Assembly: GCA_964016885.1 (NCBI GenBank)
Contig: OZ024765.1
Span: 11,346,001 to 11,410,000 of the forward strand
Reading direction: 5' to 3'
DNA from: Eledone cirrhosa
Taxonomy: Eukaryota
Length of the DNA stretch: 64,000 nucleotides
The translations under genes and the position numbers were made by a program. The notes beneath the pieces are model-generated. The model had not been told where the DNA came from. It saw nothing but the letters and a program-made list of their open reading frames with translations, and searched no databases. Below are positions 1-60,868 of the stretch, piece after piece (position 1 is the first letter of the stretch; each line of letters opens with the position of its first letter).

Positions 1-216
1 GTCCAGAATCAGACAGATCCACACAATGATCGCGTCTCAAGCTGTCTGCCGGCGAAACAATTGTAACACACATTAAATTGAGTTCAGATGCATCACTGAT
101 TGTTCGTTTTCTATTATATCATACTCTGCTCTGTAAGAGCATAGAGTGCTCAACTGGCATACCGCCTGTGGAAGCATCTTAGCTACCATCAGACACACAC
201 ACATATATATATATAT

Positions 217-7080: not shown

Positions 7081-9105
7081 ACCACATGATGAGTCTCTGG
7101 GATCAAGACAGACTTTAACTCTGCGATGGACTGAGATCCTATCCAGGGAGTGACTTGTATTCTCAGTTGCTTCAAGCCAGGGAAACCAAGATAAGCACCA
7201 TATGATGAGTCTCTGGGATCAAGACAGACTTTAACTCTGCGATGGACAGACATCCTATCCGGGGAGTGACTTGTATTCTCTGCCGGTTCAAGCCAAGGAA
7301 ACCAAGATAATCACAAGCCTGATGGTCTTCTGGGATCAAGACAGACTTTAACTCTGCGATGGACTGACATCCTATCCAGGGAGTGACTTGTATTCTCAGT
7401 TGCTTCAAGCCAGGGAAACCAAGATAATCACAAGCCTGATGGTCTTCTGGGATCAAGACAGACTTTAACTCTGCGATGGACTGACATCCTATCCAGGGGG
7501 TGACTTGTATTCTCTGCCGCTTCAAGCCAGGGAAACCAAGATAATCACAAGCCTGATGGTCTTCTGGGATTAAGACAGACTTTAACTCTGCGATGGACTG
7601 ACATCCTATCCAGGGGGTGACTTGTATTCGCTGCCGCTTCAAGCCAGGGAAACCAAGATAATCACAAGCCTGATGGTCTTCTGGGATTAAGACAGACTTT
7701 AACTCTGCGATGGACTGACATCCTATCCAGGGGGTGACTTGTATTCTCTGCCGCTTCAAGCCAGGGAAACCAAGATAATCACAAGCCTGATGGTCTTCTG
7801 GGATTAAGACAGACTTTAACTCTGCGATGGACTGACATCCTATCCAGGGGGTGACTTGTATTCTCTGCCGCTTCAAGCCAGGGAAACCAAGATAATCACA
7901 AGCCTGATGGTCTTCTGGGATTAAGACAGACTTAAACTCTGCGATGGACTGACATCCTATCCAGGGGGTGACTTGTATTCTCTGCCGCTTCAAGCCAGAG
8001 AAACCAAGATAATCACAAGCCTGATGGTCTTCTGGGATTAAGACAGACTTTAACTCTGCGATGGACTGACATCCTATCCAGGGAGTGACTTGTATTCTCT
8101 GCCGCTTCAAGCCAGAGAAATCAAGATAATCACAAGCCTGATGGTCTTCTGGGATTAAGACAGACTTTAACTCTGCGATGGACTGACATCCTATCCAGGG
8201 GGTGACTTGTATTCTCTGCCGCTTCAAGCCAGAGAAATCAAGATAATCACAAGCCTGATGATCTTCTGGGATCAAGACAGACTTTAACTCTGCGATGGAC
8301 TGACATCCTATCCAAGAGGTGACTTGTATTCTCTGCCGCTTCAAGCCAGGGAAATCAAGATAATCACAAGCCTGATGGTCTTCTGGAATTAAGACAGACT
8401 TTAACTCTGCGATGGACTGACATCCTATCCAGGGGGTGACTTGTATTCTCTGCCGCTTCAAGCCAGAGAAATCAAGATAATCACAAGCCCGATGATCTTC
8501 TGGGATCAAGACAGACTTTAACTCTGCGATGGACTGACATCCTATCCAGGGGGTGACTTGTATTCTCTGCCGCTTCAAGCCAGGGAAACCAAGATAATCA
8601 CAAGCCTGATGGTCTTCTGGGATCAAGAAAGACTTTAACTCTGCGATGGACTGACATCCTATCCAGGGGGTGACTTGTATTCTCTGCCGCTTCAAGCCAG
8701 GGAAACCAAGATAATCACAAGCCCGATGGTCTTCCGGGATCAAGACAGACTTTAACTCTGCGATGGACTGACATCCTATCCAGGGGGTGACTTGTATTCG
8801 CTGCCGCTTCAAGCCAGAGAAACCAAGATAATCACAAGCCCGATGGTCTTCTGGGATCAAGACAGACTTTAACTCTGCGATGGACTGACATCCTATCCAG
8901 GGGGTGACTTGTATTCTCTGCCGCTTCAAGCCAGGGAAACCAAGATAATCACAAGCCTGATGGTCTTCTGGGATTAAGACAGACTTTAACTCTGCGATGG
9001 ACTGACATCCTATCCAGGGGGGTGACTTGTATTCTCTGCCGCTTCAAGCCAGGGAAACCAAGATAATCACAAGCCTGATGGTCTTCTGGGATTAAGAAAG
9101 ACTTT
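7005..9105 (+). repeat. 117-bp tandem array (~18 copies) amplified from the SINE central domain
   Basis: Period 117 (7331, 7448); the first unit is continuous with the SINE head at 6838. Confidence 0.9.
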
Positions 9106-22463: not shown

Positions 22464-22658
22464 TAGGAAAAAGTATGACCCCGACGGCAGAGCTCAAGCC
22501 GTTTCAACGGCTATTTCTGGACTCAGAAATAGCCGTCGAAACGGCTTGAGCTCTGCCGTCGGGGTCATACTTTTTCCTATTTCCCACTCTACTACCCTAA
22601 GTATTGAGTACTCTCGTGCGTTATGGTCCATCTGGTTCCTTACCACAATTCCTTTGTT
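22464..22658 (+). mobile_element. PLE-like hairpin element, family B (3' half of a hammerhead)
   Basis: ~55-bp inverted arms, GAAACGGC..GCCGTC^GGGGTC, ~80-nt tail, (TA)n flanks; other copies at 25413, 34625, 47578, 52353. Confidence 0.8.
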
Positions 22659-22744
22659 ATATATATATATATCACTATCCAGCAAACCTCAACCATTAAG
22701 GTTGTCTTTATGCGGGTATGTCAATATTTATAAAACAAATTTGT

Positions 22745-25374: not shown

Positions 25375-25412
25375 TTAATCTGTTATTTTAATAAATATAT
25401 ATATATATATAT

Positions 25413-25616
25413 AACGGAGGAAATGTGGTAAGGAACCAGGTGGACCATAACGCACCAAAGTACTCAATACTTAGGGTAGTAGAGTGGGTAATAGGAACGA
25501 GTAGGACCCCGACGGCTGAGCTCAAGCTGTTTCGACGGCTAATTCTGGACTTTCTTAGTCCAGAATTAGCCGTCGAAACGGCTTGAGCTCAGCCGTCGGG
25601 GTCCTACTCGTTCCTA
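25413..25616 (-). mobile_element. PLE-like hairpin element, family B
   Basis: ~60-bp inverted arms around 25554 plus tail; (TA)n flanks. Confidence 0.8.
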
Positions 25617-25695
25617 TATATATATATATATATATATTAATAATTGTTTCTACTTTTGGCACAAGGCCAGCAATTACCCAGTGCATTACTGGAAC

Positions 25696-34337: not shown

Positions 34338-34338
<1 letters not shown>

Positions 34339-34542
34339 CGTAGGTCCCGGGTTGAGTCGAGGATAACCACAGTAAGTAGGGTACTCAATACATGGCAGAG
34401 TAAAAAATTTTTATTTTATAGAAGGAGCTTCTATAAAAGATTTTATTTTATAAAAGATTTTATTTTATAAAAGATTTTAAATTCTGAAGATTTCATCTGA
34501 ATGAAACAGTACTAGTCCTGTAGAAGCTCCTTCTATAAAATA

Positions 34543-34545
<3 letters not shown>
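34338..34545 (-). mobile_element. PLE-like element, family C; hammerhead core at 34484-34523 (+)
   Basis: CTGAAGA t ttc-atct-gaa t GAAAC agtactagtc; near-identical to 60709-60868. Confidence 0.75.
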
Positions 34546-34613
<68 letters not shown>

Positions 34614-34624
34614 GTATATATATA

Positions 34625-34840
34625 TAGGAACAAGTATGACCCCTACTGGTGATGTGTTGGTGTAAATGGTAGCACAGTGGTCCGGATAACCAAAGATGTG
34701 GGTTCGACTCCCATGTACGTCAATACTCATCTTTTTAATATTGGGGTCATACTTGTTCCTATTACCCACTCTACTATCTTAAGTATTGAGTACTTTGGTG
34801 TGTTATGGTCCATCTGGTTCCTTACCACATTTCCTTCGTT
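34625..34840 (+). mobile_element. Family B PLE-like element carrying a tRNA-like insert
   Basis: taggaacaagtatgacccc / ggggtcatacttgttccta inverted arms and family B tail. Confidence 0.8.
34651..34722 (+). tRNA. tRNA-like 72-nt cloverleaf (pseudo-tRNA; non-canonical anticodon loop CCGGATA)
   Basis: All four arms pair; A box tggtgtaaatgg, B box ggttcgactcc; TTTTT at 34732-34736. Confidence 0.7.
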
Positions 34841-34854
34841 ATATATATATATAT

Positions 34855-35480
34855 ATCATCATCATCATCATCATCGTTTAACGTCCGTGTTCCACGCTTG
34901 CATGGGTTTGGACGGGGGTAGTCCCACTTGAGGCAAGAGTGGTTGTCTTGCTCGCATAGGACTGTCTGGCGGGTTTTCTACAGTTGGATGCCCTTCCTAA
35001 CACCAACCACATTTACAGTGTGGGGCTGGGAGGTTTTTACCGTGTTGCCTACATGGCCACATTACAGCGTGGACTGTCTGGCGGGTTTTCTACAGCTGGA
35101 TGCCCTTCCTAACACCAACCACATTTACAGTGTGGGGCTGGGAGGTTTTTACTGTGTTGCCTACACGGCCACATTACAGCGTGGACTGTCTGGCGGGTTT
35201 TCTACAGCTGGATGCCCTTCCTAACACCAACCACATTTACAGTGTGGGGCTGGGAGGTTTTTACCGTGTTGCCTACATGGCCACATTACAGCGTGGACTG
35301 TCTGGCGGGTTTTCTACAGCTGGATGCCCTTCCTAACACCAACCACATTTACAGTGTGGGGCTGGGAGGTTTTTACAGTGTGGGGCTGGGAGGTTTTTAC
35401 CGTGTTGCCTAAACGGCCACATTACAGCGTGGACTGTGTGTTTTTTTTTTGTCGTGACACCTACACGATCTCATTTGTTT
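34855..35480 (-). mobile_element. RTE-tailed SINE-like element with a 112-bp internal tandem array
   Basis: ggatgcccttcctaacaccaacc motif, (CAT)n end; single-unit copy at 62917-63198. Confidence 0.75.
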
Positions 35481-46978: not shown

Positions 46979-47458
<480 letters not shown>

Positions 47459-47577
47459 ATATATATATATATATATATAATACATGTATATATATGCATG
47501 AAGAACTGTGAAACCGGTAAAGGAAATAAATAAATATTCTTAAAAAGAGTCCAGTTGCATTTTCGATTTATATATAT

Positions 47578-59544: not shown

Positions 59545-59700
59545 AAGTTTATCCCAGGTTAATCAGGAATAACCACAGTAAGTAAGGTACTCAATACATA
59601 GCAGAGTATAAATATTTAATATAGAAATGGCTTCTACAGGACTAGAACTGTCTCATTGAGAGGAAATCATCAGGAAAGTCTTTCCTGATGATTTCCTATA
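59545..59700 (-). mobile_element. Family C element with a degenerate hammerhead (GAGAC)
   Basis: Same tail as 47285; short inverted arm. Confidence 0.7.
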
Positions 59701-60364: not shown

Positions 60365-60708
60365 ATATTGAATATTCCTTTGCTTATATATATATATATG
60401 TGTGTGTATGTGTATACATATACATACATATATATATAAATATATATATATAAGATCTACACCTCATCACTGAAGTGAACCTAAACATCGAGTGTTCACC
60501 TTGGTGAACCTACAGTAACACCAAGTTACACTCCCTGGATATATATATATATATATATATTATTATATCATGACTCATACACTGTTCATTTTCCTGACAT
60601 TTGTACATTATTCTATGTACTATACATGCACCTTTGATGAGTTGTAGTGCACCTGAGCACTGTACACAATAATTTCATTATTATTATTATATATATATAT
60701 ATATATAT

Positions 60709-60865
60709 ATAGAAGGAGCTTCTACAGGACTAGTACTGAAGATTTCATCTGAATGAAACAGTACTAGTCCTGTAGAAGCTCCTTCTATAAAATAAAAAAT
60801 TTTACTCTGCCATGTATTGAGTACCTTACTTACTGTGGTTATCCCCGACTCAACCCGGGACCTAC

Positions 60866-60868
<3 letters not shown>
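60709..60868 (+). mobile_element. Family C element; hammerhead core at 60736-60769
   Basis: Inverted arm, CTGAAGA..GAAAC, tail, (TA)n flanks. Confidence 0.8.

Follow-up and report, generated by a model that had tools for sequence, protein, structure and literature searches.

A tRNA-like repeat fragment joined to a PLE-type family at a predicted hammerhead cut in the Eledone cirrhosa genome

How does a tRNA-like segment come to lie inside the palindrome of a PLE-type repeat, joined to it at the base where a ribozyme is predicted to cut? The question is raised by positions 34625..34840 of a 64-kb stretch of Eledone cirrhosa DNA (the window), which a first-pass annotation had read as a whole tRNA-like Pol III unit fused to a PLE-like end. 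Two interpretations were offered there: either the reverse transcriptase (RT) ran off the 5' end of a self-cleaved RNA and jumped onto a Pol III transcript, or the locus is a tRNA-headed SINE that was mobilised by a PLE. The composite is a real, rare chimera, and this earlier interpretation is partly supported, about half of it being right. The composite has also led to a tRNA-headed family that is likely mobilised by a PLE, which is the larger result, and to what appear to be genomic traces of RNA cutting, and of the capture of other sequence, at the hammerheads of PLEs.

The composite locus

Re-reading of the sequence confirmed a tRNA-like segment inside a palindrome of the repeat family called B here, with the 72-nt cloverleaf, short trailer, TTTTT, aatatt and GGGGTC (at 34743) in the order first described. 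On the left, a (TA)n microsatellite (34552..34626), which is the left flank and the inferred target, adjoins an inverted family-B arm on the minus strand (34627..34643). The arm runs from the inner 3' end of B (B +18/20) to exactly the predicted ribozyme cut and is complementary to 34743-34762 at 20/20 positions, the shared TA counted. The four bases that follow, TACT (34644..34647; GTA on the minus strand), had been taken in part for a cleavage triplet that the inverted arm had kept. The family triplet is GTC; the GTA belongs to a junction filler, and the same CCC-TAC filler is found in 5/87 other B copies that are truncated or mutated at the cut. The TACT is likely a short snap-back copy of the inverted arm.

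The insert proper (34648..34736, plus strand) is a fragment of a second repeat, which is separate from family B and is named family T here. It comprises unit positions 2-90 of T, namely a 3-nt leader, the tRNA-like head, a 9-nt trailer and TTTTT, and shows 0 mismatches in 89 nt to the majority sequence of subfamily T1. The cloverleaf lies at 34651..34722 of the plus strand, with an A box at 34658-34669 and a B box at 34701-34710. It scores 42.4 bits against Rfam RF00005 (gathering score 29), which is the sole Rfam match at threshold in the window, and it is the only gene that ARAGORN called there. The anticodon loop is non-canonical and differs among T subfamilies. A cellular tRNA-Ser gene was considered and set aside, both for this loop and for the membership of the segment in a repeat, of which it forms the head. 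A GACGG microhomology between the inverted B arm and the T leader was also set aside, as it needs two transversions in 4 nt, whereas the CCC-TAC filler recurs.

The TTTTT at 34732..34736 (plus strand) is a predicted Pol III terminator, which in normal T copies is internal and forms the 3' arm of a long stem. It is followed by an AT-rich filler, AATATT (34737..34742), that matches the normal continuation of neither T nor B and is likely non-templated. The family-B 3' part (34743..34839, plus strand) then extends from the first base after the hammerhead-like GTC to the outer 3' end (B +98), and the right flank (34840..34856) is again (TA)n sequence.

The junction T5-N(0-20)-GGGGTC, searched as an exact pattern, has 1 match in the 3.0 Gb genome. 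A genome-wide search for B boxes lying up to 40 nt upstream of the B cut likewise gave 1 match, the composite. The composite thus records one event and does not represent a family. Many identical junctions had been proposed as the mark of a PLE-dependent SINE, and this one match is all that the search returned. SINEs are defined as LINE-dependent (PMC3531059), and with 1 junction genome-wide the composite falls outside the SINEBase definition. It is extremely improbable that a T head with a B tail forms a SINE family of its own, mobilised by the partner of B. The composite does have a head-plus-PLE-tail architecture with intact A and B boxes, but the single copy found by exact patterns refutes a composite family for this assembly. 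T head and B tail sequences were found in contigs or reads of three organisms (labelled A, B and E), with T-type flanks as loose ends. Where loose ends were listed for the T head in four public data sets, they run into T, and those listed for the B tail run into B; no piece spanning the T-B junction is among the loose ends listed, a blank that proves nothing.

The TSD of the insert's own, which the first-pass annotation had said to look for, was not found; the B arms enclose the tRNA-like insert, and the microsatellite flanks would hide an outer TSD. This bears on the idea of coincidence, in which a T fragment came to lie within a B palindrome through nested insertion, subsequent deletion or misassembly. 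The region is indeed a nest of repeats in microsatellites, other T copies (L217, L218, L228 and L321) break off at the T run through what seem to be later events, and the composite junction is spanned by no independent read among the listed pieces. We consider coincidence very unlikely nonetheless: the T piece is without both of its own 3' start sites and without a TSD, both B arms stop at the same base, and two independent loci repeat the pattern with another family, C, discussed below.

A further PLE-type family, A, is present at window positions 34338-34550 (directly left of the composite), 47294-47459, 59552-59673 and 60708-60867. Its copies have inverted arms, (TA)n ends and a canonical minimal hammerhead, CTGA(A/T)GA...GAAAC...GTC, and the family shares the motif GTATTGAGTAC with the family-B tail.

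The repeat that donated the insert

Normal T copies carry the head followed by T's own body, not family B. A genome search with the insert gave 1,024 candidates, and the best of the 40 that were scored match it at 99-100%. A 25-mer from the insert has 1,370 exact matches genome-wide and a tail-anchored T pattern has 4,854, arms being counted separately in both cases. The unit is 259-291 nt long and non-coding, with a longest stop-to-stop frame of 73 aa. Copies are dispersed over many contigs, and units form circularly permuted partial and full head-to-tail tandems. One 3-kb locus (L117, G000:C1:131459500-131462500) consists entirely of T units in tandem, at least 11 of them, and has the look of a SINE-like satellite.

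The insertion anatomy of T was read from the first 100 25-mer matches in contig order, which give 79 distinct loci once 8 overlapping ones are removed; the sample omits three places already covered by the earlier insert search or near neighbours. With the tandem array L117 and arms shorter than 60 nt excluded, 132 arms in 78 loci were analysed. The 3' ends of 127/132 arms fall in two zones about 35-65 nt apart, the zones having been drawn after inspection of the data. Head-to-head, two-armed loci make up 52 of the 78, among which 43 pair zone 1 with zone 2, 4 have zone 1 twice and 5 have one unclassified end. A TA run adjoins 113 of the 132 arms, and neither poly(A) nor a single LINE-type tail was seen in this sample. 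The PLE pattern is described as an inverted 5' copy, partial tandems, a tail and a microsatellite bias (PMC8557442), and the PLE tail is reported to sit between two RT start sites (PMC11167929). With its inverted arms, tail, tandems and (TA)n targets, T shows Penelope-type insertion anatomy.

The 5' ends of T are about threefold enriched at unit positions -1..12 (27 stops in 1,389 traversed positions vs 92 in 15,334; p 1.3e-6), a window that was picked after viewing the data. This cluster fits an RNA start just upstream of the head. In about 14 of 30 arms of the tail-anchored sample, judged by eye, the sequence breaks off at positions 63-71, at the entry to the T arm. The 30 loci sampled from the 4,854 tail-anchored matches were all T, none of them leading into coding sequence other than T, and the upstream flanks of 25 single-armed T loci share only a few short or pairwise matches and no common extension.

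The A and B boxes are intact in 4/4 T subfamily majorities. Between these majorities the head differs at 0-6/72 positions, of which 25 are conserved through the locus selection itself, and the trailer at 0-1/19. From T1 to the other majorities, the body differs at 15-18 of about 71 positions and the tail at 18-22 of 60-65. More divergent subfamilies (L215, L219, L229 and L234) have the same trailer and other bodies, which suggests that T is an older, diversified family. From its A and B boxes, T would be transcribed by Pol III. The last part of the unit could pair with the trailer and T run, and A-to-G changes there leave G-U pairs in place; the predicted fold of the full monomer pairs the T run and brings the monomer ends together, its whole-sequence z-scores being weak (-1.7 and -0.8). 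In T3 the first acceptor pairs are disturbed, which argues against strict tRNA-type processing. The T units gave no match to a ribozyme family at E up to 1, and the hammerhead core motif is absent from the sense strand of 4/4 T majorities.

Additionally, we compared T with the terms of the classes to which it might belong. It agrees with the size and copy terms of SINEBase (below 1 kb, non-coding, at least 100 copies). Its head covers all 71 positions of the Rfam tRNA model, where SINEBase asks for 60% identity over 60 nt to a tRNA species. The SINEBase wording 'interspersed, non-tandem' fits the dispersal of T, yet T often occurs as partial or full tandems. Its two 3' ends and inverted arms do not look like reverse transcription by a partner LINE. 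What T does have are structural features of a non-autonomous PLE, namely an inverted 5'-truncated copy with tandems, an optional tail and microsatellite targets. It lacks the hammerhead in each unit that marks a non-LTR retrozyme. Judged from this anatomy, T is likely mobilised in its own right by a PLE. The suggestion of a tRNA-headed SINE mobilised by a PLE thus fails for the composite, of which there is one copy, and carries over to family T, which is tRNA-headed with PLE-type anatomy.

Truncation and proposed capture at predicted hammerhead cuts

Two ordinary family-B copies in the window served for comparison, one at 22465..22660 (plus strand), which has an inverted arm and GTC^GGGGTC, and one at 25411..25617 (minus strand). 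These copies read GCCGTC^GGGGTC (window 22561 and 25510), which bears out the earlier observation that GGGGTC follows a GTC triplet. Long B copies have helix I (CCCC/GGGG), a core, a long stem II, GAAAC and GTC^. The core is atypical, reading C-TGAGAA (a C3/A8 mismatch) in 11/18 copies, T-TGAGAA in 4/18 and other variants in 3, and no Rfam ribozyme score was obtained on the family-B hammerhead. The T-TGAGAA form resembles the U3-A8 hammerhead variant described in PMC4209133. Three long copies (L178, L200 and L208) extend about 1 kb upstream into AT-rich, non-coding sequence with no ORF. Family B may be either the long 3' UTR of a PLE or itself non-autonomous.

The ends of family B were mapped on 54 arms from 30 loci (L180-L209) that were not selected on the 5' end, arms ending below +12 being left out. 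At the 3' side, 54/54 arms end at +18/20 or +98. At the 5' side, 41/54 stop 34-55 nt upstream of the predicted cut, in the stem II insert, and 1/54 stops at the cut, so that the predicted cut is a minor 5' end of the family. Genome-wide, B matches that depart from GTC at the cut number 138, against 40 with a control of like design placed 3 nt upstream (3.5-fold; binomial p 8e-14), a ratio that is inflated by the control needing three more intact bases, including a CpG. Among the 87/138 cut-site loci that were viewed, 20 are run-on mutants and 67 are truncations; the share of run-on mutants is similar at the cut (20/87) and at the control 3 nt upstream (9/30). Of the truncations, 20 have both B arms ending at the cut and a filler no longer than 9 nt. 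Truncations of B are enriched at the cut, though the cut is a minor end. At G000:C2:276983080-277001117, four B copies about 6 kb apart have an identical departure at the cut site and are probably a local segmental repeat.

The T run of the insert was then followed across the genome with a T5+purine pattern, which has 58 matches; all 57 besides the composite were viewed. A script found that 49 of these continue in T, L234 was seen by eye to do so too, and 7 end at the T run. One of the seven, L345 (G000:C688, at about 56.5 kb), has T positions of about 7-90 ending in TTTTT and joined without filler to a third repeat, named family C here. The native upstream sequence of C reads CTGAAGA-A-GGGC-TTAT-GCCC-GAAAC-GTC^, and the L345 join falls at the caret. 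The remaining six copies that stop at T5 have a 5' truncation point inside the head, and TA runs or other repeats come after them. Family C has the canonical minimal hammerhead motif in 3/3 copies with upstream sequence, with a weak helix I, and the motif fits the minimal form described in PMC4209133 (CUGANGA, unpaired nt, stem II, GAAA, NUH). By its sequence, family C agrees with the PLE minimal hammerhead criteria and carries a predicted ribozyme.

A search for TTTT-N(0-8)-^C, which required TTTT and not T sequence, gave 4 matches genome-wide: L345, L346 and two units of a tandem, L347. L346 (G000:C1, at about 84.97 Mb) has a T 3' half that ends in T7, followed by an 8-nt AT-rich filler and the same C cut base. 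In three independent insertions, then, a T piece that ends in its T run is joined to the predicted hammerhead cut of one of two unrelated families. The tandem L347 (G000:C12:8973000-8974200) has a unit of about 295 bp that consists of the family-C 3' part from the cut and unrelated sequence, without a visible ribozyme core; it may be a further non-autonomous derivative that arose when sequence was captured at the cut. At L029, a family-C copy to the left of a B copy is truncated exactly at its hammerhead cut and adjoins a TA run. At L228, the head of a different tRNA-derived SINE directly follows a T copy cut at TTTTT/AA, a junction that looks like a LINE-type target site. At L368 and L396, both B arms run from the cut into the same foreign sequence (inserts of 36 nt and about 90 nt with inverted ends), and the presence of one foreign sequence on both arms implies a template that was already chimeric at the cut.

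The first-pass annotation had held that diverse small RNAs at the same junction would support template jumping, and T proved to be the only tRNA-type partner found. A B-box pattern detected no other small RNA at the B cut genome-wide. ARAGORN called 0 tRNAs on 60 B cut-site loci, a weak test that also missed the T piece in L348, and Rfam gave no tRNA match on 13 chosen loci, a weak test too in that L345 and L346 were also blank.

We regard it as probable that, at the composite, a PLE RT ran off the cut B RNA and then switched to a short T transcript, which it entered at the oligo-U end. The ribozyme would cut the B RNA at GTC^ in vivo, and the PLE enzyme would nick the (TA)n and start reverse transcription at the B outer site. 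On reaching the 5' end of the cut RNA, the RT would add a few A/T bases, jump to the oligo-U 3' end of the short T RNA and copy it to its start, the join being made during cDNA synthesis. A second priming at the B inner site would give the inverted arm, which also stops at the cut. The short T RNA would be a Pol III product from about unit position 1 to the T run. Read-through or tandem T transcripts would carry the two RT start sites, which lie 85-155 nt past the T run. Lacking both sites, the short terminated RNA would be inserted only as a passenger, as at the composite. This account is based on the anatomy, the unique junction, the two family-C fusions and the excess of B truncations at the cut, and the run-off and jump proposed at the outset gained support from the unique junction, the lack of a TSD and the C fusions. 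Counting against it are the atypical B core, the cut being a minor B end and the absence of filler in L345. Hammerhead cleavage is reported to be unnecessary for insertion in vitro, and Anolis RNA-seq is reported to give no reads ending at the hammerhead cut (both PMC11167929).

The T run raises a further difficulty for the jump onto a short RNA: it is internal in normal T copies, and an A-rich cDNA end could prime there on a longer RNA. The jump may accordingly be replaced by one onto an internal U run of a longer T transcript, or by T cDNA or DNA taken up in repair, with no short Pol III RNA; we think this unlikely. The T run is read through in normal copies, 50/57 of the other T5+purine matches going on in T, and microhomology joints are plentiful in PLE insertions. 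However, all three fusions break in the same T run despite the other T-rich stretches of T, that run is predicted to be paired in the full monomer, and the window holds no other T copy that could have been a local DNA template.

The remaining alternative places the join before copying: the 5'-OH of cleaved B RNA would be joined by an RtcB-type ligase to a T RNA with a cyclic phosphate, and the chimera would then be copied. Hammerhead cleavage leaves the 5'-OH that RtcB needs, and all three joins lie at a hammerhead cut. The L345 join without filler fits ligation, and the two B arms that continue into the same foreign sequence at L368 and L396 correspond to a continuous template. RtcB circularises retrozyme monomers in vitro (PMC7229834), and ligation before copying has a precedent in U6/L1 (PMC6789731). 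In two of the three fusions the partners are separated by an AT-rich filler (6 nt in one, 8 nt in the other) that matches the normal continuation of neither, and the inverted arm of the composite is not continued into filler and T end, unlike what a ligated template would give, though it may be cut short. We hold ligation first to be rather unlikely on balance and retain the jump during reverse transcription as the preferred reading.

Known systems and the search for a partner

The composite is comparable to the U6/LINE-1 chimeras, in which an oligo-U-ended Pol III-type RNA lies 5' of a truncated retroelement after one insertion event and the same question of template switch versus ligation arises (PMC6789731; bioRxiv 10.1101/2025.02.02.635956). 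It is unlike them in its PLE-type driver, in a join fixed at the hammerhead cut and in a passenger that is the head of another mobile repeat. Capture of unrelated sequence by PLEs in trans has been reported (PMC3846280). A literature search, with most subscription journals outside its coverage, returned no description of captures at a PLE hammerhead cut and none of a tRNA-headed, PLE-mobilised element without a ribozyme.

For family T, the Schistosoma Sm-alpha and Sj-alpha elements, which are tandem, non-coding, tRNA-derived and reported to be Pol III-transcribed (PMC6765202, PMC2770079), appear to be the nearest precedent. Sm-alpha carries a hammerhead that frees monomers, whereas T is without a conserved core and has inverted arms, a tail set by two sites and a leaning towards (TA)n targets. 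Non-LTR retrozymes resemble T in their non-coding tandem units of 170-400 nt and in being proposed non-autonomous PLE derivatives (PMC7229834; bioRxiv 10.64898/2026.07.22.740005), but what defines them is the type I hammerhead that every unit carries, in place of which T has its tRNA-like head; the word 'tRNA' occurs 0 times in the main text of bioRxiv 10.64898/2026.07.22.740005. The non-autonomous Chlamys (MRC1) and the Naiad and Neptune elements share with T pLTR-like partial tandems, an inverted 5' copy, a 30-40-bp tail and microsatellite targets, and Naiads, which are without hammerheads, prefer (TA)n; unlike T, no tRNA-derived head is described for them in the accessible text of PMC8557442. 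Short non-autonomous Penelope elements are known from butterflies (PMC6685494). The TRIMp3 elements Helenus, Ajax and Cassandra combine a small-RNA-derived Pol III promoter with a non-autonomous element and a non-LINE partner; they are LTR retrotransposon derivatives, of which T would be the PLE counterpart (PMC10886601). The recently active insertions in a recent annotation of octopus repeats include 893 unclassified SINE families (PMC13282606). T may already be named as a SINE, for instance in Repbase, Dfam, SINEBase or an octopus repeat library.

Octopus tRNA SINEs named OK, OR1 and OR2 were reportedly described by Ohshima and Okada in 1994. Like these and other classical tRNA SINEs, T is short, has a tRNA-like head with A and B boxes and is present in more than 1,000 dispersed copies. 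By its description it is set apart from them, having no single 3' tail or LINE-type end and having permuted tandems and inverted arms.

Taken more broadly, T could be a SINE-like parasite of PLEs, a retrozyme without a ribozyme in which the tRNA-like head takes the place of the hammerhead by supplying the promoter and the RNA 5' end, and possibly also RNase P processing and a pairing of the two ends that would aid circularisation. The fusions, three in number, would then be fossils of PLE hammerhead cutting in vivo and of the PLE enzyme jumping onto Pol III transcripts, a birth step of such elements. This reading is tentative, and we place it a little short of an even balance. If true, T would add PLEs to the drivers of SINEs, in parallel to TRIMp3 for LTR elements, and the fusions would show a concrete route by which a PLE 3' end and a Pol III RNA give a new head-tail element. 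Truncations and captures fixed at the cut base could be counted wherever a genome is rich in PLEs and would thus serve as a genomic read-out, and PLE-Pol III RNA fusions should be reproducible with the published in vitro PLE assay.

A partner enzyme was sought through its endonuclease. In the window itself, Pfam on 9 ORFs gave no RT and no GIY-YIG; a 623-aa stop-to-stop frame (7172-9043, minus strand) has short BTB_3 and TFB6 scores that are probably repeat-driven. A GIY-YIG search of the genome gave 10,597 candidates, of which 150 were scored and 20 loci fetched. No match to T or to the B end was found near the GIY-YIG ORFs in these 20 of the 150 scored loci, with about 1 kb of 3' flank each. 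In 18/20 loci the endonuclease is C-terminal with a CxxxxCxxC linker, an arrangement for which a hypothetical tie to microsatellite targeting has been put forward (PMC8557442); L308 is C-terminal and of another type, and L319 was translated from the wrong strand. The loci L300-L318 represent at least six PLE families with a C-terminal GIY-YIG, long non-coding 3' regions and, in several cases, long open frames of up to 1,096 aa.
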